Part shown: positions 9,299-28,330 of the stretch, piece after piece
Position numbering within the stretch: the first letter of the stretch is position 1
Layout of the letters: every line of letters starts with the position of its first letter
From: Candidatus Latescibacterota bacterium
GTDB lineage: Bacteria > Latescibacterota > UBA2968
Direction of reading: 5' to 3'
Assembly (NCBI GenBank): GCA_965204745.1
Contig: OZ242010.1
Location: forward strand, 2,208,001-2,272,000
Length of the DNA stretch: 64,000 bases
Notes under the pieces: generated by a model
The model's input: only the letters and a program-made list of their open reading frames with translations
Databases searched by the model: none
What the model was told of the DNA's origin: nothing
Program-made: the position numbers and the translations under genes

Positions 9299-9312
9299 GA
9301 CGCGCAGACGAA

Positions 9313-9355: not shown

Positions 9356-9375
9356 GCGAACATCGTTTTTACGCA

Positions 9376-12300
9376 TCAGCCTCCAGTGCCGAATTGGTCG
9401 GTGAGGATCTGGCCATCGGAAAATCCAATTTCGCCATCGCTGTCGAGATCGTACCGCGCATCGTACTCCGCATCGCCTCGGCGCGTCCCATACTTAAAAA
9501 TAAAGGCTATGAAGTCGGCAAAATTAACCTGACCATCGCCATTGAAGTCGGCGGTCGGTTGTTGCACTTCAAGGGTGAACGTCAGCGAGGCGAAATCGCC
9601 ATCTGCATCAAACGCCGACAAGGTGTATTCGGTCTCGGTCATCACCTTGCTCGGCGTGCCGGAGATCGTGTGCGTGGCCGAGTCGAATCGCAATCCCTTC
9701 GGTAGGATCGGCAGTAGGATATAGACCAGCGTGCCATCGCCACCGGTGGCTTCGGGCAGGGTCATGCGGACATTGCCCCCGATGAAGTAGCGTTGCGCGG
9801 CAACCCGTGTCCCATCGCCAAAGGCAGGCAGTCGGTCCGCTATGACCGCGAGCGTGAAGGTCAATGTCGTCGCATCGCCATCTGTATCGGTTGCAGTTAG
9901 CGTGTATTCGGTTTCGTCCATTATCTCGCCCGGCGTGCCAGACAGTTCCCGCGTTGTCGCGTCAAAGGTCAGTCCCGATGGCAGAGCGGGCGTTAGGGCG
10001 TAGGTCAGTGCCTCATCGCCGCCGGTTGCCTGCGGCAAGGTGATGTTGATGGCTGTCCCTGTCCGATAGCGTTGCGCGGTGACTGTTGAACCCTTGAAGG
10101 ATGGCAGATAGTCTGGGGTGGGGTCGGGCGGGGCAGGCGGATCAGGCGGGGGCGGCGAGGGCGGTCTGTCACTGGGCGTCCCCGTTACGCCCACCGAGGG
10201 TTGCCCATCGTCGGCGTTGGTCAGGGTGGCGATGACGCGCACAGTGTATTCCGTGCCCGCGGTCAGACCGGCGATTGTCGCACTCGTCTTGCCACCGTTG
10301 TCGATGACTTGCTGACGGTCAGAGGCGTACAACGCATCCCCGGATTTCCACTGCACTTTGTAACCGGTCGCCCCGTTCACCGCATCCCACGACACGCCCA
10401 AATAGCCCTCGCCGGGCGCGACTGTCACACCCGTCACTTGCCCCGGTTCTGTCACCACTGTGACCGGCCCCGTCCCCTGCGCGGCTGTCACGGTGAAGGT
10501 CACGGACTTGTCAATATCCGCGACGTCGATAATTGCCTTAACTGTATTCGCGCCCGCAGTACCCAGGGTCAACCTCGTCGAGGCGCGCCCATTGGCATCG
10601 GTGGTATCGGTTGTGGTACTGAGCGAGCCACCGCCCGCCGTGACCGAAAAAGTGACCGGCACCCCGGCAAAGGCAACATCGTTCTGATCCCGCACTTCAA
10701 CGATGAACGGATCGGACAGGCGAGAACCAGCCGTGCCGGTTTGGTCATCGCCCGAGATTTTTACCAAACTGGCCAAGGTGCGGGAAGAGTAGCCGTAGTC
10801 TACAAAAACGCCTCGGCTCCCTAGATCCGAGATGTAGGTAGCGCGAGAAAGATAGTTTAAGGGATTACCCGTAAGCTCTATCCGTCTCAGGCTGGTTAAG
10901 CCCAACAGGGCTGAGATATCCGAGATGTTGTTTTCTTGACAATATAACCGGATCAAGCTAGTGAGACCCCGAAGCGGCGAGATATCCGAGATACGGTTTT
11001 TGTCAATATCCAGCTCTTTCAGGCTGGTTAAGCCCGACAAGGCCGAGATATCAGAGATGCGGTTGCTTTCAAGAGACAGCGTTGTCAGGCTGGTTAAGCC
11101 CGACAAGGCCGAGATATCAGAGATGTTGTTGTTGTAAAGCCACAGCCTTGTCAGGCTGGTTAAGCCCGACAAGGCCGAGATATCAGAGATATCAGAGATG
11201 CCGCTGCTGAAAAGCCACAGCGTTGTCAGGCTGGTTAAGCCCGACAAGGCCGAGATATCAGAGATGCCTCTGCTACTAAGACTCAGAAATGTCAGGCTGG
11301 TTAAGCCCGACAGGGCCGAGATATCAGAGATGCGCCAGTTGTAGGCAAGAGCCAGATGTGTCAGGCTAGTTAAGCCCGACAGGGCCGAGATATCAGAGAT
11401 GCGGTTGCCGGAAAGACCCAGATATTCCAGGCTAGTTGCATGCTCCAGCCCGGTCAAATCACCTATGCGTAAAGCCGGATCATCATCAAAGTGGAACAAG
11501 TCAAGGCGGGTCAGGGTCGCCATCTCACTTGGGGTAATGATCGCACCGCTCGATTTTTTTAGTGCGCTCTCAATGGCAGCACGCAAGTTGGCGTCGGGAA
11601 TGTTCACGTCGCGCACAACGGTCACTGTGTAGGTTTTCGTCGTCGTCCCATCTTCTGCTGTGACCACTATGGTAATGGGATTTTCGCCCACACTGAGGGA
11701 AATGGCACTGCTCGCACTGCCACTCGATACCGAAGTGCCGTTCACCGTGATCGTGGCACCGTCGTAATTGCTCGTCGGCATAATGGTCAGGCTGTCGATG
11801 CTGTGCGCCACGGTCGCCGTGTAGGAGAGAGAGTCATACACAAAGGCAGGAACCAGCGTCCCTGCCGAGAGGGTCAAGCCGATCAGGTCCGCTGTCCCAC
11901 CTGTTGCCGTGGTGAAGGTCACGGACTTGTCAATGCCCGAGACGTCGATAGCTGCTACAACCGTGTCCGCGCCCACAGTCCCCAGCGTCAACCTCGTCGA
12001 GGCGCGCCCATTGGCGTCTGTGGTATCGGTTGTGGTACTGAGCGACCCTCCGCCCGCCGTGACCGAAAAAGCGACCAGCACCCCGGCAAAGGCAACGTCG
12101 TTCTGATCCCGCACTTCAACGATGAGCGGATCGGACAGGCGATCAGTGCTACTGGTTATTTGGTCATCGCCCGAGATTTTTACCAAACTGGTCAAGGTGC
12201 GGGGAATATAGTATACATTGACGCCTCGGCTCTGGAGAGCCGGGATATGGGTAGCGAGGGAAGGATAGTTCAATAAATTATAATGAATCTCCAGACTTGT

Positions 12301-13965
12301 CAGGCTAGTGAGATCCTGAAGTGGAAGTGCCGAAATATCCGAGATGCGGTTGAAACGAAGATCCAAATATGTCAGGCTGGTTAAGCCCGATAGGGCCGAG
12401 ATATCAGAGATATGGTTTTGGTTAAGAATCAGCTCTTTCAGGCTGGTTAAGCCCGATAGTGAGATAGCCGAGATGTTGTTGCCGGAAAGATTCAGATTTG
12501 TCAGGCTGGTTAAGCCCGATAGTGAGATAGCCGAGATGTTGTTGCCGGAAAGATTCAGCGTTGTCAGGCTGGTTAAGCCCGACAGGGCCGAGATATCAGA
12601 GATGGAGTTCCTATCAAGATTCAGCGTTGTCAGGCTGGTTAAGCCCGACAGGGCCGAGATATCAGAGATGGAGTTCCTATCAAGATTCAGCGTTGTCAGG
12701 CTGGTTAAGCCCGACAGGGCCGAGTTATCAGAGATGGAGTTCCTATCAAGATTCAGCGTTGTCAGGCTGGTTAAGCCCGACAGGGCCGAGATGTCCGAGA
12801 TGCCGTTGCCGCTAAGAGACAGCGTTGTCAAGCTGGTTAAGCCCGATAGGGCCGACGACAGGGCCGAGATATCAGAGATGCCGCTAAGAGACAGCGTTGT
12901 CAGGCTGGTTAAGCCCGATAGGGCCGAGATATCAGAGATGCCGTTGACGTTTAGAAACAGCGTTGTCAGGCTAGTTAAGCCCGACAGGGCCGAGATATCA
13001 GAGATGCCGTTGACGTTTAGAGACAGCGTTGTCAGGCTGGTTAAGCCCGACAGGGCCGAGATATCCGAAAAGCGGTTGTTGTAAAGATACAGCGTTGTCA
13101 GGCTGGTTGCATGCTCCAGCCCGGTCAAATCACCTATGGGTAAATACAGACCATTGAACTTTAAGTCAAGGCTGGTCAGGGTCGCCATCTCACTTGGGGT
13201 AATGATCGCACCGCTCGATTTTTCTAGTGCGCCCTCAATAGCAGCACGCAAGTTGGCGTCGGGGATGTTCACGCCGCGCTCAACGGTCACTGTGTAGGTT
13301 TTCGTCGTGGTCCCATCTTCTGCTGTGACCACTATGGTAATGGTGTTTTCACCCACACTGAGGGAAATGGCACTGCTCGCATTACCACTCGATACCGAAG
13401 TGCCGTTCACCGTGATCGTGGCGCCGTTGTGATTGCTCGTCGGCGTAACGGTCAAGCTGTCGATGCTGTGCGCCACGGTCGCGGTGTAGGCGAGAGAGTC
13501 GCGGGCAAAGGCCGGAACCAGCGTCCCGGTCGAGAGCGTCAGACCGCTCAAATCCTCATCGCTTGAAGCGGTATTCTGCGTGTTCACACCGCGCTCAACG
13601 GTCACTGTGTAGGTTTTCGTCGTCGTCCCATCTTCTGCTGTGACCACTATGGTAATGGTGTTTTCGCCCACACTGAGGGAAATGGCACGGCTCGCGTTGC
13701 CACTCGATACCGAAGTGCCGTTCACCGTGATCGTGGCACCGTTGTGGTTGCTCGTCGGCGTGACGGTCAGGCTGTCGATGCTGTTCGCCACGGTCGCGGT
13801 GTAGGCGAGAGAGTCACGCACAAAGGCCGGAGCCAGCGTCCCTGCCGAGAGCGTCAGGCCGCTCAGGTCCGCATCGCTTGAAGCGGTATTCTGCGCGGCG
13901 GATTCGCCACAAACAACGAGCAGGGCGCAGAGCAGAAGAACGGAGCTAAAAGGGCGGTAGGTCAT
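9376..13965 (-). CDS. Secreted internalin-like LRR surface protein 1: SP-CadBS-CadBS-LRR-Big-CadBS-LRR-Big-FN3-Pro linker-He_PIG x2-EF-hand pair
   Basis: IPDANLRAAI cap, LTSLTxLxLxxNxISDISALSG repeats, TAEDGTTTKTYTVTV, GYKVQWKSG, LPSGLTFD..ISGTP, ADFNGDGQVNFADF; start placed at MTYRPF by paralogy and GGAG. Confidence 0.9.
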   Translation of the reverse strand: MTYRPFSSVLLLCALLVVCGESAAQNTASSDADLSGLTLSAGTLAPAFVRDSLAYTATVANSIDSLTVTPTSNHNGATITVNGTSVSSGNASRAISLSVGENTITIVVTAEDGTTTKTYTVTVERGVNTQNTASSDEDLSGLTLSTGTLVPAFARDSLAYTATVAHSIDSLTVTPTSNHNGATITVNGTSVSSGNASSAISLSVGENTITIVVTAEDGTTTKTYTVTVERGVNIPDANLRAAIEGALEKSSGAIITPSEMATLTSLDLKFNGLYLPIGDLTGLEHATSLTTLYLYNNRFSDISALSGLTSLTTLSLNVNGISDISALSGLTSLTTLFLNVNGISDISALSGLTSLTTLSLSGISDISALSSALSGLTSLTTLSLSGNGISDISALSGLTSLTTLNLDRNSISDNSALSGLTSLTTLNLDRNSISDISALSGLTSLTTLNLDRNSISDISALSGLTSLTTLNLSGNNISAISLSGLTSLTNLNLSGNNISAISLSGLTSLKELILNQNHISDISALSGLTSLTYLDLRFNRISDISALPLQDLTSLTSLEIHYNLLNYPSLATHIPALQSRGVNVYYIPRTLTSLVKISGDDQITSSTDRLSDPLIVEVRDQNDVAFAGVLVAFSVTAGGGSLSTTTDTTDANGRASTRLTLGTVGADTVVAAIDVSGIDKSVTFTTATGGTADLIGLTLSAGTLVPAFVYDSLSYTATVAHSIDSLTIMPTSNYDGATITVNGTSVSSGSASSAISLSVGENPITIVVTAEDGTTTKTYTVTVVRDVNIPDANLRAAIESALKKSSGAIITPSEMATLTRLDLFHFDDDPALRIGDLTGLEHATSLEYLGLSGNRISDISALSGLTSLTHLALAYNWRISDISALSGLTSLTFLSLSSRGISDISALSGLTSLTTLWLFSSGISDISDISALSGLTSLTRLWLYNNNISDISALSGLTSLTTLSLESNRISDISALSGLTSLKELDIDKNRISDISPLRGLTSLIRLYCQENNISDISALLGLTSLRRIELTGNPLNYLSRATYISDLGSRGVFVDYGYSSRTLASLVKISGDDQTGTAGSRLSDPFIVEVRDQNDVAFAGVPVTFSVTAGGGSLSTTTDTTDANGRASTRLTLGTAGANTVKAIIDVADIDKSVTFTVTAAQGTGPVTVVTEPGQVTGVTVAPGEGYLGVSWDAVNGATGYKVQWKSGDALYASDRQQVIDNGGKTSATIAGLTAGTEYTVRVIATLTNADDGQPSVGVTGTPSDRPPSPPPPDPPAPPDPTPDYLPSFKGSTVTAQRYRTGTAINITLPQATGGDEALTYALTPALPSGLTFDATTRELSGTPGEIMDETEYTLTATDTDGDATTLTFTLAVIADRLPAFGDGTRVAAQRYFIGGNVRMTLPEATGGDGTLVYILLPILPKGLRFDSATHTISGTPSKVMTETEYTLSAFDADGDFASLTFTLEVQQPTADFNGDGQVNFADFIAFIFKYGTRRGDAEYDARYDLDSDGEIGFSDGQILTDQFGTGG

Positions 13966-14044
13966 GATAAACTCCAAAAGTTATACTGCCGGGCGGTGAA
14001 AAAAATAGAATATACGCGATTGTAGCGTGATTGGATGCCACGCC

Positions 14045-17000
14045 TTAGTCCGCCGAGCCAAAGCTGTCGGCGAAGATCAGGAAATCGGAAAATCCAATCT
14101 CGCCATCGCCATTGAGATCGCACCGCGCATCATACCGCTCCTCGCCTCGGCGCGTCCCAAACTTGCCCGCAAAGGTCAAAAAGTCGGCGAAAGTCACCTG
14201 CCCATCGCCATCAAAATCGGCCGTGGGCAATAACACGCCAAGCGCGAACAGCAACGAGGTGAGATCCCCATCCGCGGCCAGCGCGCTCAAGATATGGGCC
14301 GTTTCTGCCACATCCATTGAGATCGCCGCCTTACTGGGAGGGGAGCAGTTCGGACGGAGGCTGCAGATGTAGGATTCAATGGCTTGAGAGGTCGTGCGCG
14401 TAGCATTTTGCTCGATGACGTTCCCTCGGATGAGGGCCTCGTTCCGAAAGAAGAGGACGTATCGAATGATCAGGATTATATCCGAGAACAGCCTCACATC
14501 GCCATCGCCATCCACATCGAGAATGTTCTGATTGACCAACGTGTCGAGGTAGGGTTGAATTTCTTGAGCGGTCGTGCGCGTGGCATCTGGCTCGATGACG
14601 TTGCCTCGGATGAGGGCCTCTCCCCGGAAGAAAAGGACGTATCGTTTGATCAGGATTATATCCGAGAACAGTTTCACCTCGCCATTGCCATCGATATCCA
14701 AGCTGGCAGGCATGCCGGTCACCTCCACTGGGTCGCTGTCGGTTGCATGGCGGCGCGTGGCGATCACTTGAACCGTGTAGGTCGTCCCTGCTTTTAGATC
14801 GGGGATTGTGTCGGTCGTGGTCGTCGGCGGGCGCTCACGGATCGCCGAGTAGGTGGTATCCGATCCTGACTTCCACCGCACTTTGTACCCATTCGCAGTG
14901 GTCACGGTATCCCAAGACACGATTATTGCGGCCACCCAAGGCTTTACCTGCACATTGGTTGGCTTGCCCGGCCTGGCGAGTGCGTTGCGTACCGCGAGGG
15001 TGAAGGTCAAGGTGTCGGTATCGCTTGCCGCTATGTTGGCATCCGTAGCGGTTGCTGTCAGCGTGTACGTGCGCGCAGGCGCCGCAGTGGTCGGCGTGCC
15101 AGCAATGACGCCCCCATTGCCCGAAGTGGCGGCTTTGTACGTCAGACTATCCGGCAGGGCAGGGGTCAAGGCGTAGGTCAGCGTGCCAGTGCCACCGGTG
15201 GCCCCAGGTAGCGTATCCGAGACCGCGGTGTTCACCGTATAGGTCGTGTCCCGCTTCGTCGCCGCAAAGGTCGGGGCGCTATATACTGAGATGGTAAAGG
15301 TCAAGGTGTCGGTATCGCTTGCCGCTGTGTTGGCATGGCATCCGCATCGGTTGCTGTCAGCGTGTACGTGCGCGCAGACGCCGCCGTGGTTGGCGTGCCA
15401 GAGATGACCCGCGTCATGTTGTTGAAGGTCAGGCCTGTCGGCAGTTTGGGAGTCAAGGCATAGGTCAGTTTGCCATTGCCGCTCGTGGCAAGAGCCGCGG
15501 GTAGGGTATCCAAGACCTCCACCTTCGCCGTATATGTGGTATCCCTCACCGTCGCCGTGTCAAAATTCGGTGCCTTGTCCGGCTGTGCGGCAAACTGTGC
15601 GGTGGTGTCGTGGCCGGCATATCTTAAGACCGGATATTGGTTGGACTCGCCGAAACTCCACGGATTATCTGGACTATTATTATGGGGGGTGGTGGACGTG
15701 CTATCTACGTTCACGTCCCAAGCAGAGTAGATGGCATTAGCGCCGTTACCCAAAGTGGAAGTATAAGAAGTAGGGGCCTGCAACTGCGCGGTGGTCTTGG
15801 CACCAGTGTGCGTTCCGCTGACTTCGGTGGTCACGCTGTCGTAGTAGCTATGCGTGATGTGCCCGCTACCAACCAAGCCCTGGCTACTACCGCTCACCTT
15901 GCCGATGGCATAACTCGTGATGATCGCGCTTAAGTTGTAGCCTACCAGCGCGCCAACACTGCTGGAGCCGGTGACGGAGGCGGTTGAGTAAGAGGCGATG
16001 ACACGCCCATTGTTGTCATTTTTACCGACCAAGCCGCCGACACTGGTCCTGCCAGAAACAGTACCAGTGACGTAGGAGTTGACGACGGTTCCTTTGTTGA
16101 TGCCCACCAACGCACCAACGTCATTAACGTCATTAACGTCATGATTGCCGGTGACTTTCGCGTTAATCAACCCGACGCCTTCAATACGTCCGCTATCGTT
16201 GATGGAATGAAACAGTCCGACGCCGGTGGTGGAGCTATTGATGAAGAGGTTGGAGATGGTGTGACCGTTGCCCTTGAAAATGGCAGTAAATTCTTGATCG
16301 TTCCGGCCGATGGGCACAAATCCGGTACTGTCCCTCGTGCCTATAGAAAAAAAGTCCGTGTTATCGGCCACGGTAATCAGGCCATCCCCGTTGGTGTCAA
16401 AGTCCAGGTCGTTCAGCAGTTCATAGCCAGTGCAGGAGGACGGACAGCCCATGGAAGATAGACCAGGGATCGGTCCTATATCGGGGAAGGCGAGGGCATA
16501 GGCGTTGACATCGGCAGTATGAACATCACCATCGCCATTCAAGTCGTAGCGGATGGCATTTAGTTGCGCCAAGTTCCTCACGTCAATCAGGCCATCGCCG
16601 TCCGCATCATAGTTTTTAGATCCCTTTCTCGTCACTGCAATGGTATAGGTAGTCGTGTCTCCGTTTGCTGCTGTCACTTTGACGGTGATTGGAGTTGTAC
16701 TTATAGTGTCATAAGTAGCTGGCTTGACGAGATTGACTTGATGGCCGGCCAGGCTACGACTATCTTCTGGTTTAATAGTGTACGTGGCTGTGCTATCATT
16801 CGTCGTCGGCTTCACGGTCAAAAAGGTCACCTTGGCCTCTACGGTGAAGCGAAAGGTGTCGCGGATGGTCAAGTGGTGAAAAGTAAAGTCTTCTATCTGT
16901 ATATTTTTCAAGTTCGCGTCATCAGATCCCGTTTGTCCGCCTACACCTCCTGTTTGTCCTCCCACACCGCTTGCCGCTTGCTCGACGCTGTAGAACGTCA

Positions 17001-17433
17001 GCCTGCTCAAAGTCGCGTCTGAAGACAGGGTGACCGAGAGGGTAAAAGTCAGCGCGGTTGTGGCATTGTTCGCATCGGTCACTGTCAGCGTGTACGTGCG
17101 CGCAGATGCCGCCGTGGTCGGCGTGCCAGCAATGACGCCCCCATTACCCGAAGTGGCGGCTTTGTACGTCAGCCCATCCGGCAGGGCAGGGGTCGTCGTC
17201 AAGGCGTAGGTCAGCGTGCCAGTGCCACCGGTGGCCCCAGGTAGCGTATCCGAGACCGTCGCTCTCACCGTATAGGTCGTGTCCCGCTTCGTCGCCGCGC
17301 CAAAGGTCGGCGTCGTCTGTGCGATGGCCGACTTGGGGGCGAGGATCAACAGCGGTGCGGTCAGGGTCAACAGTGCGATAATCGCCCTCCAGTTGCGGAG
17401 GACAGGGAAAAAATGGATCAAACGGTTCGGCAT
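14045..17433 (-). pseudogene. Secreted GLUG/He_PIG/FN3/dockerin-like protein split by a 5-bp frameshift (ORFs 15301-17433 and 14045-15304)
   Basis: TGGCATGGCA at 15331-15340 where the internal paralogous module near 15030 has one TGGCA; removing one copy gives a single 1127-aa frame. Confidence 0.85.
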
Positions 17434-17545
17434 GTGCTTCTCCTTATTAGAAATCCTACACTACGGTTGCAATTTGTAACCAATATAATAGATATAATAG
17501 CCCATAAAAGAAAAATCGTAGCCAATTAGAAAAAAATGTAATGGA

Positions 17546-17628
17546 CCCGCAAAGGTCAAAAAGTCGGCGAAAGTCACCTGCCCATCGCCATCAAAATCGG
17601 GCGTGGGCACTAATACGCCAAGCGCGAA
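17546..17628 (-). repeat. Orphan 83-bp EF-hand fragment, direct repeat of 14166-14248
   Basis: Near-identical DNA encoding ALGVLxPTxDFDGDGQVTFADFLTFAG. Confidence 0.9.
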
Positions 17629-17647
17629 TCGACGCACAGACGAAAAA

Positions 17648-17687
17648 CAAAAAGCCCGAGTTCCTTGCGAACCCGGGCTTTTTGTTT
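17648..17687. terminator. Terminator hairpin, copy 2
   Basis: Same AAGCCCGAGTTCCTTGCGAACCCGGGCTT stem-loop as at 9320. Confidence 0.85.
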
Positions 17688-17705
17688 GAACATCGTTTTT
17701 ACTCA

Positions 17706-18245
17706 TCAACCGCCAGTGCCGAATTGGTCGATGAGGATCTGGCCATCGGAAAATCCAATTTCGCCATCGCTGTCGAGATCGTACCGCGCATCGTACTCCG
17801 CATCGCCTCGGCGCATCCCATACTTGAAAATAAAGGCTATGAAGTCGGCAAAATTAACCTGACCATCGCCATTGAAGTCGGCGGTCGGTTGTTGCACTTC
17901 AAGGGTGAACGTCAGCGAGGTGAAATCGCCATCTGCATCAAACGCCGACAAGGTGTATTCGGTCTCGGTCATCACCTTGCTCGGCGTGCCGGAGATCGTG
18001 TGCGTGGCCGAGTCGAATCGCAATCCCTTCGGTAGGGTCGGCAGTAGGATATAGACCAGCGTGCCATCGCCGCCGGTGGCTTCGGGCAAGATCACGCGGA
18101 CGCTGTCCCCGATGATGTAGCGTTGCGCGGCAACCCGTGTCGAATCGCCAAAGGCCGGCAGTCGATCCGCCGTGACCGAGAGCATAAACTTCAACGGGGC
18201 CGCGACGCCGTCTTCATCTGTGGCGGTCAGGGAACAGGCTTTCAT
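17706..18245 (-). CDS. Detached C-terminal cassette (He_PIG + EF-hand pair), no signal peptide
   Basis: Most of it is nearly identical to the 3' end of gene 9376-13965 (offset 8330); ATGA overlap with upstream LRR gene. Confidence 0.7.
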   Translation of the reverse strand: MKACSLTATDEDGVAAPLKFMLSVTADRLPAFGDSTRVAAQRYIIGDSVRVILPEATGGDGTLVYILLPTLPKGLRFDSATHTISGTPSKVMTETEYTLSAFDADGDFTSLTFTLEVQQPTADFNGDGQVNFADFIAFIFKYGMRRGDAEYDARYDLDSDGEIGFSDGQILIDQFGTGG

Positions 18246-21200
18246 TGGAAGTGGGAGGCGGGATAGAGGCTTCGGATGTAGGATTCAATATCTTGCGGGG
18301 TCGTGCGCGTGGCATCTGAAGAGACAGCACGATTGATGAGGGCCTCTTCCCGGAAGAAGAGGACGTATCGAGTGATCAGGATGATATCCGAGAACAGTTC
18401 CACCTCGCCATTGCCATCCACATCGAGAATTTTCTGATCGACCAAAATGGCGATGTAGGATTCAATGTCTTGCGGGGTCGTGCGCGTGGCATCTAAAGAG
18501 ACAGCACGATTGATGAGGGCCTCTTCCCGGAAGAAGAGGACGTATCGAGTGATCAGGATGATATCCGAGAACAGTTCCACCCGGCCATTGCCATCCACAT
18601 CCAAGTTGGCACTCGGTGTGTCGTCATCGGTCAGGGTCACGGGCGAGGGAGGCGAGGTCGTTCTGGCACTGGGCGTCCCCGTCACGCCCACCGAGGGCGG
18701 GCCATCGTCGGCATTGGTTAGGGTGGCGATGACGCGCACAGTGTATTCCGTGCCTGCGGTCAGACCGGCGATTGTCGCACTCGTCTTACTGCCGTTGTCG
18801 ATGATTTGCTGACGGTCAGATGAGTACAACGCCTCCCCGGATTTCCACTGCACTTTGTAACCGGTCGCCCCGTTCACCGCATTCCACGACACGCCCAAAT
18901 AGCCCACGCCGGGCGTGACTTCCACACCCGTCACTTGCCCCGGTTCTGTCACCACTGTGACCGGTCCCGTCCCCTGCGCGGGCGTCACGGTGACCGATCC
19001 CGTCGTCAAGTCCTCGCTACCAGAATGGGCCGCGGCCTTCACGGTCACGCGCAAACTCTGATTCGCGTCAAAACCCAACCCGGTATAAGCGAGCGTCAGT
19101 TGGGCGACGGTGGCGGAGGTTCTGACAGGCGTACCGCTGATGCTCGCGCCCTGCGGTGCGGTGTGCAATGCGAAGTGGTTGGCGGCGAGGGTCTCGTTGT
19201 AGGTGGCACCGGTCAGGGTGATGTTGACTTTTGCCCCGTCGAGATTGGTTTCTGTCAGCGCGTCCGGAACCGTCGATGATATCGCTACCCCCTCTGCCGT
19301 GGCGGTGAAGGTCACGGACTTGTCAATGTTCGAGACGTCGATAGCTGCTACAACCGTGTCCACACCCGCAGCACCCAGCGTGTCGGCACCCGTAGCACCT
19401 AGCGTCAACCTTGTCGAGGCACGCCCGTTGGCATCGGTGGTATCGGTTGTGGTACTGAGCGACCCACCGCCCGCCGTGACCGAAAAAGCGACCGGCACCC
19501 CGGCAAAGGCGACGGCGTTCTGATCCCGCACTTCAACGATGAACGGATCGGACAGGCGAGAACTAGCAGTGCCGGTTTGGTCATCGCCCGAGATTTTTAC
19601 CAAACTGGTCAAGGTGCGGGTATCGTAGCGTACATCAACGCCTCGGCTCTGGAGAGCCGGGATATGGGTAGCGAGGGAAGGATAGTTCAAGGGATTACCC
19701 GTAAGCCACAGACCGGTCAGGCTGGTTAAGCCCGACAAGGCCGAGATATCAGAGATGTTGTTGCTTCTAAGAAACAGACCGGTCAGGCTGGTTAAGCCCG
19801 ACAAGGCCGAGATATCAGAGATGCGGTTGGTGTCAAGATACAGAAATGTCAGGCTGGTTAAGCCCGACAAGGCCGAGATATCAGAGATGTTGTTGCTTCC
19901 AAGATACAGACGGGTCAGGCTAGTTAAGCCCGACAAGGCCGAGATATCAGAGATGCGGTTGGTGGAAAGACCTAGATCGGTCAGGTAGGTTAAGCCCGAC
20001 AAGGCCGAGATATCAGAGATGCGGTTGGTGGAAAGACGCAGATCGGTCAGGCTGGTTAAGCCCGACAGGGCCGAGATATCAGAGATACGGTTGTCGGAAA
20101 GATCCAGAAATATCAGGCTGGTTAAGCCCGACAAGGCCGAGATATCAGAGATGCGGTTGTCGGAAAGATGCAACGCACTCAAGCTGGTTAAGCCGGATAG
20201 CGGCGAGACATCCGAGATGCTTAAGTTGCTGTTAAGATTCAGATCTCTCAGGTTGGTTAAGTTGGATAGCGGCGAGACATCCGAGATGTTGCTACCGGAA
20301 AGATCTAGAAATGTCAGGCTGGTTAAGCCCGACAAGGCCGAGATATCCGAGACGCTGTTGCTGTCAAGATTTAGCGTTGTCAGGCGGGTTGCATGCTCTA
20401 GCCCGGTCAAATCACTAATGTTCTGACTCACAGCAACAAGGCGGGTCAGGGTCGCCATCTCACTTGGGGTAATGATCGCACCGCTCGATTTTTTCAGTGC
20501 GCCCTCAATGGCAGCACGCAAGTTGGCGTCGGGGATGTTCACGCCGCGCACAACGGTCACTGTGTAGGTTTTCGTCGTGGTCCCATCTTCTGCTGTGACC
20601 ACAATGGTAATGGTGTTTTCGCCCACACTGAGGGAAATGGCACTGCTCGCACTGCTGCTCGATACCGAAGTGTCGTTCACCGTGATCGTGGCGCCGTTGT
20701 AACTGCTCGTCGGCGTGACGGTCAGGCTGTCGATGCTGTCCGCCACGGTCGCCGTGTAGGAGAGAGAATCACGGGCGAAGGCCGGATCCAGCGTCCCTGC
20801 CGAGAGCGTCAGGCCGCTCAAATCCGCATCGCTTGAGGTCCTACCTGTTGCCGTGGCGGTGAAGGTCACGGACTTGTCAATGTCCGAGACGTCGATAGCC
20901 GCTACAACCGTGTCCACACCCGCAGCACCCAGCGTGTCGGCACCCGTAGCACCTAGCGTCAACCTCGTCGAGGCACGCCCGTTGGCATCGGTTGTATCGG
21001 TTGTGGTACTGAGCGACCCACCGCCCGCCGTGACCGAAAAGGCGACCAGCACCCCGGCAAAGGCGACGTCGTTCTGATCCCGCACTTCAACGATGAGCGG
21101 ATCGGACAGGCGAGAACCAGCAGTACCGGTTTGGTCATCGCCCGAAATTTTTACCAAACTGGTCAACGTGCGGGTATCGTAGCTTACACCAACGCCTCGG

Positions 21201-22339
21201 CTCCGAAGATCCGGGATGTGGGTAGTGAGAGAAGGATAGTTCAAGAGATTACCCGGAAGATACACCGTTTTCAGGGTGGTGTGCCCCTTAAGCGGCGAGA
21301 TATCCGAGATAAGGTTGTTGTTAAGATACACCGTTGTCAGGCTGAGCCCCTTAAGCGGCGAGATATCCGAGATGCGGTTGGCGTAAAGCCACAGCACTTC
21401 CAAGCTGGTTAAGCCCGACAGGGCCGAGATATCAGAGATGCGGTTGTTGTTAAGATATAGACGTTCCAGGCTGGTTAAGCCCGACAGTGCCGAGATATCA
21501 GAGACGCTGATGCGGCCAAGATTCAGCACTTTCAGACTGGTTAAGCTCGACAGGGCCGAGATATCAGAGATGCTGGTGGTGCCGAAAAGATTCAGCACTT
21601 TCAGGCTGGTTAAGCCCGACAGTGCCGAGATATCAGAGATGCGGTTGTTGTCGAGACTCAACCATCTCAAGCTAGTGAGCCCCTGAAGCGACGAGATATC
21701 CGAGATGTGGTTGGCGGAAAGAGACAGATATATCAGGCTGGTGAGATCCTGAAGCGACGAGATATCCGAGATGCGGTTGTCGGAAAGAGACAGCGTGTCC
21801 AAATTGGTTGCATACTCCAGCCCGGTCAAATCACTAATGTTCTGATTCCTAGCATCGAGATCAGTCAGGGTCGCCATCTCGCTTGGGGTAATGATCGCAC
21901 CGCTCGATTTTTTTAGAGCTCTCTCAATGGCAGCACGCAAGGTGGCGTCGGGGATGTTCACGCCGCGCACAACGATCACTGTGTAGGTTTTCGTCGTGGT
22001 GCTATCCTCTGCGGCAACCACTATGGTAATGGTGTTTTCGCCCACACTGAGGGAAATGGCACTGCTGGCACTGCCACTCGATACCGAAGTGCCGTTCACC
22101 GTGATCGTGGCGCCGTTGTGGTTGCTCGTCGGCGTGACGGTCAGGCTGTCGATGCTGTTCGCCACGGTCGCGGTGTAGGAGAGAGAGTCACGCACAAAGG
22201 CCGGATCCAGCGTCCCTGCCGAGAGCGTCAGGCCGCTCAAATCCGCATCGCTTGAAGCGGTATTCTGCGCGGCGGATTCGCCACAAACAACGAGCAGGGT
22301 GCAGAGCATAAGAACGGATCTAAAAGAGCGATAGATCAT
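18242..22339 (-). CDS. Secreted LRR surface protein: SP-CadBS-LRR-Big-CadBS-LRR-Big-Ig-like-FN3-dockerin-like x2
   Basis: Same modules as protein 1; ends in two LDVDGNGxVELFSDIILITRY repeats. Confidence 0.9.
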   Translation of the reverse strand: MIYRSFRSVLMLCTLLVVCGESAAQNTASSDADLSGLTLSAGTLDPAFVRDSLSYTATVANSIDSLTVTPTSNHNGATITVNGTSVSSGSASSAISLSVGENTITIVVAAEDSTTTKTYTVIVVRGVNIPDATLRAAIERALKKSSGAIITPSEMATLTDLDARNQNISDLTGLEYATNLDTLSLSDNRISDISSLQDLTSLIYLSLSANHISDISSLQGLTSLRWLSLDNNRISDISALSGLTSLKVLNLFGTTSISDISALSSLTSLKVLNLGRISVSDISALSGLTSLERLYLNNNRISDISALSGLTSLEVLWLYANRISDISPLKGLSLTTVYLNNNLISDISPLKGHTTLKTVYLPGNLLNYPSLTTHIPDLRSRGVGVSYDTRTLTSLVKISGDDQTGTAGSRLSDPLIVEVRDQNDVAFAGVLVAFSVTAGGGSLSTTTDTTDANGRASTRLTLGATGADTLGAAGVDTVVAAIDVSDIDKSVTFTATATGRTSSDADLSGLTLSAGTLDPAFARDSLSYTATVADSIDSLTVTPTSSYNGATITVNDTSVSSSSASSAISLSVGENTITIVVTAEDGTTTKTYTVTVVRGVNIPDANLRAAIEGALKKSSGAIITPSEMATLTRLVAVSQNISDLTGLEHATRLTTLNLDSNSVSDISALSGLTSLTFLDLSGSNISDVSPLSNLTNLRDLNLNSNLSISDVSPLSGLTSLSALHLSDNRISDISALSGLTSLIFLDLSDNRISDISALSGLTSLTDLRLSTNRISDISALSGLTYLTDLGLSTNRISDISALSGLTSLTRLYLGSNNISDISALSGLTSLTFLYLDTNRISDISALSGLTSLTGLFLRSNNISDISALSGLTSLTGLWLTGNPLNYPSLATHIPALQSRGVDVRYDTRTLTSLVKISGDDQTGTASSRLSDPFIVEVRDQNAVAFAGVPVAFSVTAGGGSLSTTTDTTDANGRASTRLTLGATGADTLGAAGVDTVVAAIDVSNIDKSVTFTATAEGVAISSTVPDALTETNLDGAKVNITLTGATYNETLAANHFALHTAPQGASISGTPVRTSATVAQLTLAYTGLGFDANQSLRVTVKAAAHSGSEDLTTGSVTVTPAQGTGPVTVVTEPGQVTGVEVTPGVGYLGVSWNAVNGATGYKVQWKSGEALYSSDRQQIIDNGSKTSATIAGLTAGTEYTVRVIATLTNADDGPPSVGVTGTPSARTTSPPSPVTLTDDDTPSANLDVDGNGRVELFSDIILITRYVLFFREEALINRAVSLDATRTTPQDIESYIAILVDQKILDVDGNGEVELFSDIILITRYVLFFREEALINRAVSSDATRTTPQDIESYIRSLYPASHFQ

Positions 22340-22389
22340 GATGAACTCCTGTCAAAAAGAGTGATACTGCTGGTGACGCCGTTGGGTAA

Positions 22390-22419
22390 AATATACGCGA
22401 TTTAGGATACGACAGTCAA
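22390..22419 (-). promoter_or_regulatory. Sigma70-like promoter TTGACT-N18-TATATT
   Basis: Reverse complement TTGACTGTCGTATCCTAAATCGCGTATATT; identical copy upstream of next paralogue. Confidence 0.7.
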
Positions 22420-22457
22420 TTTTTTTGGCATTTGATGCGAACATCGTTTTTCGTGCG

Positions 22458-25400
22458 TCAACCGCCAGTGCCGAAATTGCTGGCGAAGATCAGGAAATCG
22501 GAAAATCCAATTTCGCCATCGCTGTCGAGATCGTACCGCGCATCGTACTCCGCATCGCCTCGGCGCGTCCCAAACTTGCCGACAAAGGACAAGAAGTCGG
22601 CAAAATCAACCTGACCATCGCCATCGATGTCGGCGGTTGGTCGTTGCACTTCAAGGGTGAACGTCAGCGAAGCACTATCGCCATCTGCATCCAACGCCGA
22701 CAAAGTGTATTCGGTCTCGGTCAGCACCCTGCTCGGCATACCGGAAATCGTGCGCGTGGCCGAGTCGAACCGCAACCCGCTCGGTAGGAACGGCAGTAGG
22801 ATATAGACTAGCGTGCCATCGCCGCCGGTGGCTTCGGGCAGGGTCACGCGGATGCTGTCCCCGATGATGTAGCGTTGCGCGGCAACCCGTGTCGAAGTGC
22901 CAAAGGCAGGCAGTCGGTCCGCTATAACCGAGATCGTGAACGTCAATGTCGCTCCATCGCCATCTGTTGCCAGCGTGTATTCGGTTTCATCCATCACCTC
23001 GCGTGGCGTGCCAGCAATGACTCGCGTTGTCGCGTCAAAGGTCAACCCCGATGGCAGATCGGGCGTCAGGCTATAAGTCAGCGTTCCATAGCCGCCGGTT
23101 ACCTGCGGCAAAGTGATGCTGATGGTCGTCCCAGCCGTGAGCGTCAGGCCGATAAAATCCGCGGGCGTCCCCGTCACGCCCACCGAGGGCGGGCCATCGT
23201 CGGCATTGGTCAAGGTGGCTATGACGCGCACAGTGTATTCCGTGCCCGCGGTCAGACCGGGGATTGTCGAACTCGTCGTACCGCCGTTGCCGATGACTCG
23301 CTGACGGTCGGAGGCGTACACCGCATCCTCGGATTTCCACTGCACTTTGTAACCGGTCGCCCCGTTCACCGCATTCCAGGACACATCCAAATATCTCACG
23401 CCGGACATGACTTCCACACCCGTCACTTGAGCCAGTTCTGTCACCACCGTGCCCGGCCCCGTCACCTGCGCGGGCGTCACGGTGACCGATTCTGTCGTCA
23501 AGTCCCCGCTACCGGAATGGGCCGCGGCCTTCACGGTCACGCGCAAGCTCTGATTCGCGTCAAAACCCAACCCGGTATAAGCGAGCGTCAGTTGGGCGAC
23601 TGTGGCGGAGGTTCTGACGGGCGTACCGCTGATGCTCGCGCCCTGAGGTGCGGTGTGCAATGCGAAGTGGTCGGCGTCGAGAGTCTCGTTGTAGGTGGTG
23701 CCGGTCAAGGTGATGTTGACTTTTGCCCCGTCGAGATTTGCCGCTGTCAGCGCGTCCGGAACCGTCGATGATATCGCTGCCTCCTCTACCGTTGTCCCAC
23801 CGGTTGCCGTGGCAGTGAAATTCACGGACTTGTCAATGTCCGTGACGTCGATAGCCGCCACAACCGTGTCCACGCCCGCAGCACCTAACGTCAACCTCGT
23901 CGAGGCACGCCCGTCGGCGTCGGTTGCATCGGTTGTGGTACTGAGTGCCCCACCGCCGCCTGTAACTGAAAAAGCGACCGGCACCCCGGCAAAGGCGACG
24001 TCGTTCTGATCCCGCACTTCAACGATGAACGGATCGGACAGGCGAGAACCAGCCGTGCCGGTTTGGTCATCGCCCGAGATTTTTACCAAACTGGTCAAGG
24101 TGCGGGCATCGTAACTCACATAAACGCTTCGGGACTCAAAGGCGGGGATATGCGTGGCGAGGGAAGGATAGGTCAAAAAATTACCACTAAGATACAACTC
24201 GGTCAGGCTAGTTAAGCCGGATAGCGACGAGATGTCCGAGACGTTGGTGTTGGAAAGACTCAACTCTCTCAGGCTGGTAAGCCCTTGAAGCGACGAAATA
24301 TCCGAGACGCCGGTGTAGGAAAGCCCCAGCGAGAACAGGCTGAGACCTTGAAGCGGCGAGATATCCGAGACGTTGGTGTTGGAAAGACTCAGTTCTCTCA
24401 GGCTGGAGAGACCCTTAAGCGGCGAGATATCCGAGACGTTGGTGTAGATAAGACGCAGAGATATCAGGCTATTAAGCCCTTGAAGTGCCGAGATATCCGA
24501 GACGCTGTTTTGGCTAAAAGACAGCGAGGTCAGGCTGGTTAAGCCCGACAGGGCCGAGATATCCGAGATGCGGTTGTCGGAAAGATGCAGAACTGTCAGG
24601 CTATTAAGCCCTTGAAGCGACGAAATATCCGAGATGCGGTTGCCCGCAAGATCCAGCGCGGTCAGACTAATTGCATGTTCCAACCCGGTCAAATCGCTAA
24701 TTTCCCTCAAACTAAAATAAAGGTCAGTCATGGTCGCCATCTCACTTGGGGTAATGATCGCACCGCTCGATTTTTTCAGTGCGCCCTCAATGGCAGCACG
24801 CAAGTTGGCGTCGGGGATGTTCACGCCGCGCTCAACGGTCACTGTGTAGGTTTTCGTCGTGGTCCCATCTTCTGCTGTGACCACAATGGCAATGGTGTTT
24901 TCGCCCACACTGAGGGAAATGGCACTGCTCGCACTGCCACTCGATACCGAAGTGCCGTTCACCGTGATCGTGGCGCCGTTGTGGTTGCTCGTCGGCGTGA
25001 CGGTCAGACTGGTTGTGCTGTTCGCCACGGTCGCGGTGTAGGCGAGAGAGTCGCGGGCGAAGGCCGGAGCCAGCGTCCCTGCCGAGAGCGTCAGGCCGCT
25101 CAAATCCGCATCGTCAGACGAGGTAGGCGAGGGCGGGGTGGGCGGCGGCGAGGGCGGCTGAGTCCTGGCAATGGGCGTCCCCGTCACGCCCACCGAGGGC
25201 GGGCCATCGTCGGCATTGGTCAAGGTGGCGATGACGCACACAGTGTATTCCGTGCCCGCGGTCAGACCGGGGATTGTCGCACTCGTCGTGCCACCGTTGC
25301 CGATGACTTGCTGACGGTCGGAGGCGTACAACGCCTCCCCGGATTTCCACTGCACTTTGTAACCGGTCGCCCCATTCACCGCATTCCAGGACACATCCAA

Positions 25401-27212
25401 ATAGCCCTCGCCGGGCGTGACTGTCACACCCGTCACTTGCCCCACTTCTGTCACCACTGTGACCGGCCCCGTCACCTGCGCGGGCGTCACGGTGACCGAT
25501 CCCGTCGTCAAGTCCCCGCTACCGGAATGGGCCGCGGCCTTCACGGTCACGCGCAAGCTCTGATTCGCGTCAAAACCCAACCCGGTATAAGTGAGCGTCA
25601 GTTGGGCGACGGTGGCGGAGGTTCTGACGGGCGTACCGCTGATGCTCGCGCCCTGAGGTGCGGTGTGCAATGCGAAGTGGTCGGCGTCGAGAGTCTCGTT
25701 GTAGGTGGTGCCGGTCAGGGTAATGTTGACTTTTGCCCCGTCGAGATTTGCCTCTGTCAGCGCGTCCGGAACCGTCGATGAGATCGTTGCCCCCTCTACC
25801 GTTGTCCCACCGGTTGCCGTGGCAGTGAAAGTCACGGACTTGTCAATGTCCGAGACGTCGATAATTGCCTTAACTGTATTCGCGCCCGCAGCACCTAACG
25901 TCAACCTCGTCGAGGCACGCCCGTCGGCGTCGGTTGCATCGGTTGTGGTACTGAGCGACCCGCCGCCCGCCGTGACCGAAAAAGCGACCGGCACCCCGGC
26001 AAAGGCGACGTCGTTCTGATCCCGCACTTCAACGATGAACGGATCGGACAGACGAGAACTAGCCGTGCCGGTTTGGTCATCGCCCGAGATTTTTACCAAA
26101 CTGGTCAAGGTGCGGGCATCGTAGCTCACATAAACGCCTCGGGACCGAAAGGCGGGGATATGCGTGGCGAGGGAAGGATAGGTCAAAAAATTACCACTAA
26201 GATACAACTCGGTCAGGCTAGTTAAGCCGGATAGCGACGAGATGTCCGAGACGCCGGTGTTGGAAAGACTCAACTCTCTCAGGCTGGTAAGCCCTTGAAG
26301 CGACGAAATATCCGAGACGTTGGTGTAGGAAAGCCCCAGCGAGAACAGGCTGAGACCCTTAAGCGGCGAGATATCCGAGACGTTGGTGTTGGAAAGACTC
26401 AGATCTCTCAAGCTGGAGAGACCCTTAAGCGGCGAGATATCCGAGACGTTGGTGTAGATAAGACGCAGAGATATCAGGCTGTTAAGCCCTTGAAGTGCCG
26501 AGATATCCGAGACGCTGTTTTGGCTAAAAGACAGCGAGGTCAGGCTGGTTAAGCCCGACAGGGCCGAGATATCCGAGATACGGTTGTCGGAAAGATGCAG
26601 AACTGTCAGGCTGGTAAGCCCTTGAAGCGACGAAATATCCGAGATGCGATTGCCGGCAAGATCCAGCGCGGTCAGACTAATTGCATGTTCCAGCCCGGTC
26701 AAATCGCTAATTCCCCTCGAACTAAAATAAAGGCCAGTCAAGGTCGCCATCTCACTTGGGGTAATGATCGCACCGCTCGATTTTTTCAGTGCGCCCTCAA
26801 TGGCAGCACGCAAGTTGGCGTCGGGGATGTTCACGCCGCGCTCAACGGTCACTGTGTAGGTTTTCGTCGTGGTCCCATCTTCTGCGGCAACCACAATGGC
26901 AATGGTGTTTTCGCCCACACCGAGGGAAATGGCACTGCTCGCACTGCCGCTCGATACCGAAGTGCCGTTCACCGTGATCGTGGCGCCGTTGTGATTGCTC
27001 GTCGGCGTGACGGTCAGGCTGGTTGTATTGTTCGCCACGGTCGTGGTGTAGGCGAGCGAGTCGCGGGCGAAGGCCGGATCCAGCGTCCCTGCCGAGAGCG
27101 TCAGGCCGCTCAAATCCGCATCGCTTGAAGCGGTATTCTGCGCGGCGGATTCGCCACAGACAACGAGCAGGGCGCAGAGCAGAAGAACGGAGCTAAAAGG
27201 GCGATAGGTCAT
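22458..27212 (-). CDS. Secreted LRR surface protein: SP-[CadBS-LRR-Big-Ig-like-FN3]x2-He_PIG x2-EF-hand pair
   Basis: Internal duplication 23163-25113 / 25173-27123 (period 2010 bp); same modules as paralogues. Confidence 0.9.
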   Translation of the reverse strand: MTYRPFSSVLLLCALLVVCGESAAQNTASSDADLSGLTLSAGTLDPAFARDSLAYTTTVANNTTSLTVTPTSNHNGATITVNGTSVSSGSASSAISLGVGENTIAIVVAAEDGTTTKTYTVTVERGVNIPDANLRAAIEGALKKSSGAIITPSEMATLTGLYFSSRGISDLTGLEHAISLTALDLAGNRISDISSLQGLTSLTVLHLSDNRISDISALSGLTSLTSLSFSQNSVSDISALQGLNSLISLRLIYTNVSDISPLKGLSSLRDLSLSNTNVSDISPLKGLSLFSLGLSYTNVSDISSLQGLTSLRELSLSNTGVSDISSLSGLTSLTELYLSGNFLTYPSLATHIPAFRSRGVYVSYDARTLTSLVKISGDDQTGTASSRLSDPFIVEVRDQNDVAFAGVPVAFSVTAGGGSLSTTTDATDADGRASTRLTLGAAGANTVKAIIDVSDIDKSVTFTATATGGTTVEGATISSTVPDALTEANLDGAKVNITLTGTTYNETLDADHFALHTAPQGASISGTPVRTSATVAQLTLTYTGLGFDANQSLRVTVKAAAHSGSGDLTTGSVTVTPAQVTGPVTVVTEVGQVTGVTVTPGEGYLDVSWNAVNGATGYKVQWKSGEALYASDRQQVIGNGGTTSATIPGLTAGTEYTVCVIATLTNADDGPPSVGVTGTPIARTQPPSPPPTPPSPTSSDDADLSGLTLSAGTLAPAFARDSLAYTATVANSTTSLTVTPTSNHNGATITVNGTSVSSGSASSAISLSVGENTIAIVVTAEDGTTTKTYTVTVERGVNIPDANLRAAIEGALKKSSGAIITPSEMATMTDLYFSLREISDLTGLEHAISLTALDLAGNRISDISSLQGLNSLTVLHLSDNRISDISALSGLTSLTSLSFSQNSVSDISALQGLNSLISLRLIYTNVSDISPLKGLSSLRELSLSNTNVSDISPLQGLSLFSLGLSYTGVSDISSLQGLTSLRELSLSNTNVSDISSLSGLTSLTELYLSGNFLTYPSLATHIPAFESRSVYVSYDARTLTSLVKISGDDQTGTAGSRLSDPFIVEVRDQNDVAFAGVPVAFSVTGGGGALSTTTDATDADGRASTRLTLGAAGVDTVVAAIDVTDIDKSVNFTATATGGTTVEEAAISSTVPDALTAANLDGAKVNITLTGTTYNETLDADHFALHTAPQGASISGTPVRTSATVAQLTLAYTGLGFDANQSLRVTVKAAAHSGSGDLTTESVTVTPAQVTGPGTVVTELAQVTGVEVMSGVRYLDVSWNAVNGATGYKVQWKSEDAVYASDRQRVIGNGGTTSSTIPGLTAGTEYTVRVIATLTNADDGPPSVGVTGTPADFIGLTLTAGTTISITLPQVTGGYGTLTYSLTPDLPSGLTFDATTRVIAGTPREVMDETEYTLATDGDGATLTFTISVIADRLPAFGTSTRVAAQRYIIGDSIRVTLPEATGGDGTLVYILLPFLPSGLRFDSATRTISGMPSRVLTETEYTLSALDADGDSASLTFTLEVQRPTADIDGDGQVDFADFLSFVGKFGTRRGDAEYDARYDLDSDGEIGFSDFLIFASNFGTGG

Positions 27213-27263
27213 GATGATACTCCTCTCAAAAAGAGTGATACTGCTGGTAATCCCATTAAAAAA

Positions 27264-28321: not shown

Positions 28322-28330
28322 CTCCGCGAC

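Follow-up and report, generated by a model that had tools for sequence, protein, structure and literature searches.

The 64,000-nucleotide (nt) stretch considered here, referred to as the window (i.e., all of positions 2,208,001 to 2,272,000 of contig OZ242010.1, GenBank assembly GCA_965204745.1), comes from a Candidatus Latescibacterota bacterium and contains three genes, A, B and C, which hold six arrays of leucine-rich repeats (LRRs). The arrays are built from 66-bp units in which a framework of nearly constant DNA is combined with six strongly variable codons. These LRR domains are probably germline-fixed and belong to a paralogous family of large secreted or surface "eukaryotic-like" adhesins of sponge-associated Candidatus Latescibacterota. 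The likely origin of the codon pattern is ordinary repeat duplication with partial homogenisation and past selection, without any built-in diversity generator.

In outline, tandem duplication of a 66-bp founder unit would have enlarged each array, and the convex framework half would have been kept alike in some arrays by short-tract gene conversion or unequal recombination. At six positions of the unit (x2, x3, x5, x7, x8 and x10), diversifying selection for different binding surfaces would have driven the units apart. These positions would now be unit-specific and conserved, each array representing one specificity in a genome with at least 14 arrays.

NNT and NNC codons on the concave face of an LRR resemble the output of a diversity-generating retroelement (DGR), and the analysis removes this tempting false positive: here they result from descent from a founder unit, from the context bias of this genome and from selection. 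A second outcome is the description of a large family of internalin-like LRR adhesins with high internal conservation (HIC) that extends across the lineage. An initial annotation of the window had proposed a diversification system similar to the variable lymphocyte receptors (VLRs) of lampreys and hagfish, with templated mutagenesis in trans as one option. Neither was borne out, while its suggestion of diversifying selection with framework homogenisation holds as a description of the arrays' history.

Repeat units and their codon pattern

The genes, which were identified from open reading frames (ORFs) and Pfam matches and, for gene A, also from the translation, and their arrays are as follows (aa, amino acids).

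Gene A: 9376-13977, minus strand, 1533 aa
Gene A, first LRR array: 12310-13035, minus strand, 11 ISDIS-anchored units, of which three have the same variable patch
Gene A, second LRR array: 10891-11430, minus strand, 8 units
Gene B: 18242-22339, minus strand, 1365 aa
Gene B, first LRR array: 21275-21802, minus strand, 8 units
Gene B, second LRR array: 19721-20383, minus strand, 10 units, the source of the initially reported NNT/NNC example
Gene C: 22458-27212, minus strand, 1584 aa
Gene C, first LRR array: 26217-26675, minus strand, 7 units, with a distinct framework (VSDISPLKGLSS type)
Gene C, second LRR array: 24207-24665, minus strand, 7 units, collinear with the first array of gene C

Tandem Repeats Finder returned a period of 66 in all six blocks that had been described (10978-11421, 12370-13108, 19708-20370, 21354-21794, 24223-24634 and 26233-26644, all on the minus strand), which confirms a 22-residue period with the consensus LxxLxLxxNxIxDIxxLxxLxx. 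The window contains 51 ISDIS-type anchors, 42 of which belong to canonical 22-aa units in register. A 42-nt framework, said to be nearly invariant even at synonymous sites, is indeed found with at most 4 mismatches in 29 of the 51 units (3, 10, 8, 5 and 3 copies with 0, 1, 2, 3 and 4 mismatches, respectively); only two of these copies lie in gene C, where the framework differs. At up to 6 mismatches there are 87 copies genome-wide. Among the 42 canonical units the framework codons are TCG at S15 in 41, GAT at D13 in 39, AGC in 37, CTT at L6 in 35 and TTA at L20 in 28 (residues are numbered within the unit). TTA and CTT account for 3% and 7%, respectively, of the genome's leucine codons (2205 long ORFs).

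Variation is concentrated at x2, x3, x5, x7, x8 and x10, where the amino-acid entropy is 2.3-3.7 bits as compared to at most 1.24 bits elsewhere. The codons originally quoted for 19755-20180 are exact, i.e., TTT, TAT, TAT, GGT, CGT, GAT and CAT at x5 and the AGC, ACC and GAC types at x8. Of the 42 canonical units of the window, 38 have NNT at x5; the other four have TGG (two) or GGG (two). The family comprises seven genes in this genome (A-G; 102 canonical units), and the genome has 14 arrays of at least four units. In the 97 distinct units of the seven genes all 78 NNY codons at x5 end in T, as compared to 29.9 expected from codon usage (p 3e-33). At x3 the codons are NNT or NNG, and at x7 the third base is other than C in 27%.

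Codon usage as the source of this third-position bias explains part of the pattern. Genome-wide, NNY codons end in C in 92% of cases before AAC and in 78% before ATC, so that this general context bias largely accounts for NNC at x8 and x10. Because NNY before CTT ends in T in only 36-46% of cases, NNT at x5 is not accounted for in this way. The variable residues had been described as rich in Y, F, W, R, D and S. Of these, W and Y are indeed enriched (8.3-fold and 5.1-fold at x5, where their excess is mainly found), but the most frequent residues are S, N, T, R and D.

An AlphaFold2 model of the second array of gene B (aa 612-905; pLDDT 85.4, pTM 0.84) is a curved solenoid in which the beta-strand of each repeat is formed by unit positions 3-7. 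In LRR solenoids this strand lines the concave face. The variable positions are thus predicted to sit on the concave or ascending-loop surface, as had been supposed, where the strand placement comes from the model and the facing from general knowledge of LRRs. A Foldseek search with the model returned InlF (TMq 0.83), SDS22 (0.81) and InlA (up to 0.79), all with E at or below 1e-13, and also the C. tepidum Roco LRR; the best matches (C. tepidum Roco LRR, InlA and InlF) reach TMq 0.83 at 36-46% identity. By sequence and predicted fold, the domain is an internalin-type (SDS22-like, 22-residue) LRR.

Origin of the variable and constant positions

Evidence for selection is found within the variable codons themselves. 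The p-distance between units is 0.646 at bases 1 and 2, 0.356 at base 3 and 0.155 in the framework, and piN of the variable codons is 0.61 versus a framework piS of 0.20-0.38. The NG86 estimate of piS on the variable codons, 0.32, is inflated by multi-step paths, and the raw base-position distances together with the T/C count at x5 were used instead. Because drift or conversion cannot separate bases within one codon, these data point to past diversifying selection on the concave face, and we infer that positive selection lay behind the divergence of the variable codons.

The wobble base at x5 is characteristic of the array. It is T in genes A-G, while in a second LRR subfamily at three other loci in the genome it is C or G, combined with TTA at L4; in one array of a relative (G014) it is C in 6 of 7 units. 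Such array-specific wobble states, together with the fixed rare codons TTA and CTT, would be expected if the units descend from a founder unit. Framework p-distances are 0.000-0.10 in 7 of the 13 arrays listed (at least three units each) and 0.10-0.22 in the remainder. In one pair of relatives, G010/G015, within-array, ortholog and non-ortholog framework distances are all 0.054, and a framework variant is present in 4 of 7 units of one species and is missing from all 7 of the other, even though orthology of the variable patches is retained. This is the signature of short-tract conversion, as judged from the aligned units.

The present state of the variable codons was assessed from orthologous arrays, with units paired at 57 or more identical bases of 66. 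The arrays are collinear in five species-pair comparisons, and the variable codons change more slowly than the framework synonymous sites (G numbers denote genomes of relatives; G000 is this bacterium's own).

G010/G015: pN variable 0.030, pS framework 0.110, 7 of 8 units paired
G004/G014: pN variable 0.031, pS framework 0.048, 9 of 9 units paired
G035/G027: pN variable 0.010, pS framework 0.083, 7 of 7 units paired
G035/G030: pN variable 0.044, pS framework 0.132, 6 of 6-7 units paired
G008/G003: pN variable 0.056, pS framework 0.089, 15 of 16-18 units paired

The pair L004 and L012 was left out (15 of 15 units identical, evidently the same or a near-identical genome), and no units were paired between L007 and L126. 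Arrays are kept between close species, and they are wholly different between paralogues and more distant species. Identical arrays across strains had been named at the outset as an observation that would speak against ongoing diversification, and such identity is seen in its closest testable form, in orthologous arrays of other species. The two seven-unit arrays of gene C are likewise collinear, with amino-acid differences at 3 of 42 variable codons; the internal copies of this gene differ by 33 synonymous and 59 non-synonymous codons in 669 aligned codons, a count that includes the terminal non-homologous linker. Between these near-identical copies there are reciprocal two-base swaps, AAC to GGC and GGC to AAC, at x10 of neighbouring units (aa 298/968 and 320/990), which resemble the outcome of conversion over a short patch between adjacent units more than that of point mutation.

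Several observations weigh against an origin by duplication, partial homogenisation and selection. In the other three of the four orthologous pairs for which framework distances were compared, the within-array distance (0.18-0.26) is far above that between orthologs (0.02-0.05); framework conversion is thus seen in one of four pairs, and homogenisation is therefore real but not general. In arrays F and G the framework p-distance is 0.025 and 0.000-0.061, respectively, at distances of 0.59-0.67 for the first two variable bases. If framework identity is taken as age, these very young-looking arrays would call for an omega far above 10, an extreme value for selection by itself; conversion or else very strong selection is required, and only the assumption of framework conversion eases the strain. 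The position-specific locking of leucine codons is not fully explained: across 16 genomes of the genus (loci L003-L011 and L103-L109) L6 is CTT in 247 of 253 units, L1 is CTG in 228 and L4 is CTG in 217, as compared to six codons at L17, counts that may be biased because the loci were picked by BLASTN to the arrays of G000. Furthermore, the six arrays of the window are without a collinear ortholog among the species sampled, and the conservation described above is that of sister family arrays. Relative to the closest named relative the flanks show a dS of 0.29-0.64 and the best unit matches share 4-7 of 9 positions, three of which are fixed; in the absence of unit-level orthology at this flank divergence, arrays therefore turn over on that timescale. 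Finally, metagenome unitigs (k=31) do not separate within-population variants from paralogues, related strains and graph artefacts.

The strongest competing explanation dispenses with positive selection: the exposed x positions would have drifted under relaxed constraint, and homogenisation, or selection acting on synonymous sites, would alone account for the contrast to the framework. LRR proteins normally vary at the x positions of LxxLxLxxN, framework conversion did occur in G010/G015, NNC at x8 and x10 fits the context bias, and the beta-strand leucine codons are unusually fixed. However, bases 1 and 2 have diverged almost twice as much as base 3 of the same codons, and the always-synonymous choice between T and C at x5 stands at 78:0, where drift would have randomised both. 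The enrichment of W and Y at x5 also speaks against drift. Universal synonymous constraint on the beta-strand half, which the prevalence of CTT at L6 had suggested, was considered and rejected, as codons 1-13 do not show significantly less synonymous change than codons 14-22 (0.062 vs 0.094, p 0.14, 38 orthologous unit pairs), and a universal codon constraint is contradicted by the arrays with C as the third base of x5. Drift without positive selection is accordingly rated unlikely.

Copying from silent donors or shuffling between paralogues, as in VLRs or antigenic variation, would generate variation at the population level. Identical frameworks of 42 nt offer enough length for homologous recombination, whole units have been duplicated (exact repeats of 109 nt in gene A, between aa 418 and 440 in the first array, and of 187 nt in gene D), and both the AAC/GGC swaps in gene C and the joints between arrays in short-read contigs could be taken as traces of exchange. 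Nevertheless, no silent cassettes were found among the framework-bearing units of the genome, every one of which lies inside the long coding arrays of the seven genes or the second subfamily; these arrays are in full-length ORFs, which have a signal peptide wherever the N-terminus is included, and there is no promoter-less cassette field. Different genes have a single variable patch in common (77 nt, at B aa 281 and D aa 2256), although exact runs of up to 153 nt are shared by the non-LRR domains, and orthologous arrays are collinear between species. The contig joints come from 13 public sequencing runs, all kept as contigs, of which X10, X12, X1 and X2 were compared with 9300-27300. This region was covered by hundreds of 200-900-nt pieces with 417 differences, and the between-array joints had sides of 20-35 nt, such as repeats and related strains yield in k=31 unitigs. 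Arrays collapse in short-read assemblies, and therefore only long-read metagenome-assembled genomes (MAGs) show them correctly. A cassette system is highly improbable, and the VLR-like reading is refuted within the reach of the present tests: by sequence comparison the variable codons appear stable and not to be mutating now.

A mechanism independent of reverse transcriptase (RT) might instead target the first two bases of the variable codons, i.e., rewrite only ligand-facing codon bases episodically at the birth of an array, which would then be frozen. If so, each symbiont species would have its own germline repertoire of at least 14 binding surfaces. The contrast between framework and variable bases in arrays F and G, the absence of C as the third base of x5 in all 97 units and the two-base AAC/GGC changes between near-identical copies agree with such a process, but we know of no precedent for it. 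No conserved accessory gene stands beside the arrays, where the neighbours are other adhesin-like genes; the variable codons are stable over a dS of about 0.05-0.13, variation does occur at the third base of x2, x3 and x7, and the pattern is compatible with duplication, selection and conversion. Rewriting of this kind is rated extremely improbable.

A DGR, i.e., adenine mutagenesis from an AAY-rich template repeat (TR), in trans, that writes or once wrote the variable codons, has a probability close to negligible and is refuted for this genome as far as testable, barring an unrecognisable RT. The NNT codons at x5 and NNC codons at x7, x8 and x10 do resemble codons templated by AAT and AAC, and the genus does contain a genuine DGR, that of G016, which is a positive control for the appearance of a DGR in this lineage. 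It consists of an FGE/C-type-lectin-like target with a 114-nt variable repeat (VR), an Avd-like ORF, a 375-aa RT and a TR. All 17 mismatches between its repeats are at adenines of the downstream template copy, and its target ORF (1-783) ends in a C-type-lectin/FGE-like motif (GGSW...GFRVA) and is not an LRR protein. The NCBIfam and PADLOC models did not recognise this DGR. The elements compared are as follows.

G016 DGR, L090 (G016:C1:4214608-4218246): VR 660-773, Avd-like ORF 918-1316, RT 1246-2373, TR 2374-2487
Retron Ec67-type RT-Toprim (type I-C) defence gene, G000:C1:5010687-5012423 (L001:1369-3105): the only RT found in this genome

A search of G000 for RVT_1 (PF00078) gave a single match, the above retron (PADLOC RT-Toprim_I-C, 724 bits; NF038237, 708 bits), 2.8 Mb from the window. 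Neither the G016 RT nor its Avd-like protein, the latter used as a single-protein query and not as a family model, had a match in G000. RVT_1 was found in 8 of 20 genomes of the genus, where the nameable RTs are of group II intron or retron types and one without a name, in G016, proved to be that of the DGR; no RT was found with RVT_1 in the other 12, all of which carry the LRR family. The mutation spectrum is also not that of a DGR: the rate of framework mismatch to the consensus is similar for A (8.9%), C (10.8%), G (11.0%) and T (7.1%), without adenine bias, and positions other than A vary (the second base of x2 is C in 43, A in 33, G in 12 and T in 9 units). The synonymous change TTA to TTG is present in one of 97 units. 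None of 99 framework matches had three or more AAY codons among x3, x5, x7, x8 and x10, and none lay outside the coding arrays. Moreover, the arrays are internal and not at the 3' ends of the genes.

Genes, family and habitat

Five consecutive minus-strand genes form a region that, as annotated from sequence, is a cluster of adhesin-like surface-protein genes; three of them hold the six LRR blocks. Genes A, B and C share a plan in which modules composed of a Cadherin-like beta-sandwich, an LRR array and Big_1 are repeated and followed by fn3, and all have hydrophobic, signal-like N-termini. The LRR_4 match ranges from 2e-83 to 4e-91 across the three genes. In gene A, where the true start is likely the ATG four codons inside the ORF, the Pfam order is a hydrophobic N-terminal signal, two Cadherin-like domains, LRR array, Big_1, Cadherin-like, LRR array, Big_1, fn3, two He_PIG and a dockerin-like C-terminus (LRR_4 4e-91, Cadherin-like 7e-65, He_PIG 1e-17, Big_1 8e-17, fn3 4e-9, Dockerin_1 4e-4). 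Gene B has a signal, Cadherin-like, LRR, Big_1, Cadherin-like, LRR, Big_1 and fn3, followed by a C-terminal doubled module. The latter is encoded by a 177-bp tandem repeat (18275-18601, 1.8 copies, 97% matches), giving two 59-aa modules that start with DVDGNG, are without a Pfam match and occupy the place of the dockerin-like tail in genes A and C. In gene C a module of about 650 codons (Cadherin-like, LRR, Big_1, an unnamed domain and fn3) is duplicated internally and followed by two He_PIG and a dockerin-like domain. Surface location of proteins A-C is predicted, and host or environmental ligands would most likely be bound via concave faces rich in Y, W, N, D and S.

The two genes between A and B are the following.

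14045-15304, minus strand, 419 aa: fn3 and a dockerin/EF-hand-like C-terminus
15301-17433, minus strand, 710 aa: Cadherin-like, GLUG and He_PIG

Long ORFs on the plus strand overlie the LRR arrays (12344-13084, 20019-20426, 24585-25781 and 26595-27128); they are most likely by-products of the repeat codon pattern and not genes. In one antisense frame, worked out by hand, the sense wobble bases fall on antisense wobble bases. Antisense coding as a source of third-base conservation was rejected on the same hand-worked reasoning, as TTA gives a stop in the codon-aligned frame. Elsewhere in the window there are two paralogous proteins with DUF6785 and DUF6784 (28203-30506 and 37268-39259; 767 and 663 aa) and, near this pair, a 1521-aa FtsX/MacB-like protein (39284-43849) and a 1930-aa Calx-beta/GLUG protein (44688-50480).

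The genome is closed, in one 5.48-Mb contig, and 97.65% complete. Genes F (658 aa, with a signal peptide) and G (1215 aa, without a signal peptide and beginning within an LRR N-cap) are about 790 bp apart; an insertion or frameshift may have split a single gene, or the repeat may have been assembled wrongly. The second LRR subfamily has the unit LTxLxLxxNQISDIAALSGLTK, with TTA at L4 in 25 of 25 units, C or G as the third base of x5, CTT at L6 and TTA at L20.

Genes F and G: G000:C1:5276291-5278267 and 5279049-5282708 (L112: 795-2771 and 3565-7212)
Second LRR subfamily: G000:C1:2878806-2879334, 2884236-2884764 and 5228363-5228900 (L110, L111)

Between paralogues the Cadherin-like module has a dS of 0.07-0.19 and an omega of 0.2-0.4, values which indicate that the flanks are young or homogenised. 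The LRR family is carried by all 20 genomes of the genus and by 15 of 16 genomes of a second family in the order, and public metagenomes contain at least 6961 similar large LRR proteins, one of which its source calls "internalin A". The nearest relatives that bear a name are Ca. Latescibacterota MAGs, and relatives come from consortia of the sponge type. Related loci, 19 from other phyla and one distant Latescibacteria record, share the Cadherin-like, Big_1 and fn3 parts, and no unit with the LRR pattern was found in these 20 loci. Runs containing the stretch are labelled sponge metagenome, and in four of them 0.31-0.49 of the sampled words were present. Should host or prey molecules be the ligands of the arrays, these would be a candidate recognition layer of sponge-symbiont specificity and a bacterial LRR counterpart of the fungal HIC repeat receptors.

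Comparison with known systems

The Listeria internalins InlA, InlB, InlF and InlH are built from the same 22-residue unit (LxxLxLxxNxIsDIsxLxxLtxL), with fold matches at TMq 0.55-0.83 and 36-46% identity, and as in the proteins described here an Ig-like domain follows the LRR. The concave face of InlA binds E-cadherin. Unlike in Listeria, there are two LRR modules per protein, preceded by Cadherin-like domains and followed by Big_1, plus fn3, with He_PIG and a dockerin-like tail in A and C, and the framework DNA is far more alike between units. The proteins are also not anchored in the Gram-positive manner: no LPXTG or GW modules were found among the Pfam matches of genes A-C, whose C-termini are dockerin/EF-hand-like or carry the DVDGNG repeat. 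Because these Listeria-type anchors were not found, the proteins are filed as internalin-like LRR proteins and not as internalins. Listeria is a pathogen, whereas the host of these genes is a sponge symbiont, and the likeness is known from sequence and predicted fold.

Eukaryotic-like proteins of sponge symbionts (LRR, ANK, TPR, fn3, cadherin) are the same kind of repeat-domain protein of a sponge-associated bacterium, in the same habitat and phylum. The available sections of one study count LRR and FN3 proteins in all 10 sponge-associated Latescibacterota MAGs (PMC12993501) and give domain counts only for the eukaryotic-like proteins. Within the accessible parts of the literature searched, no paper was found that joins sponge-symbiont LRRs with positive selection.

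The likeness to DGRs is confined to the NNT/NNC codons at ligand-facing positions. In contrast to DGRs, no DGR-type RT, Avd or TR was found in this genome, there is no adenine spectrum, and many internal units vary instead of one 3' VR. The DGR variable proteins described in the accessible literature use the C-type-lectin fold, and the DGR of the genus itself targets such a protein.

In the VLRs of lampreys and hagfish an LRR scaffold has a variable concave face on which aromatic and polar residues are frequent, a feature shared by the arrays described here. Unlike VLRs, they show no incomplete germline gene, flanking silent cassettes or evidence of somatic or population-level assembly in this genome, where no search was aimed at a deaminase.

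The closest known kind is that of the HIC repeats of fungal HNWD and NLR proteins. As described in the accessible part of one study, the WD40 repeats of Podospora HNWD (het-d/het-e) have near-identical DNA through concerted evolution and a few hypervariable interaction-surface sites under diversifying selection (PMC1805685). HIC WD40 repeats are reported to be frequent in bacteria, and one HIC LRR NLR in sea urchin and HIC in other repeat types are cited (PMC12222747, in the sections available). Here, too, unit DNA is nearly identical, including synonymous sites, and a few surface positions are hypervariable. The LRR resides, however, in a secreted bacterial adhesin-like protein and not in an intracellular NLR sensor, there is no repeat-induced point mutation (RIP), and exchange of units between loci is rare (one shared patch). 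Furthermore, het-d/e alleles are highly polymorphic, whereas the arrays of this family are conserved between species. The domain is an ordinary, if clean, tandem-repeat binding domain, whose evolutionary mode matches that of HIC repeats.

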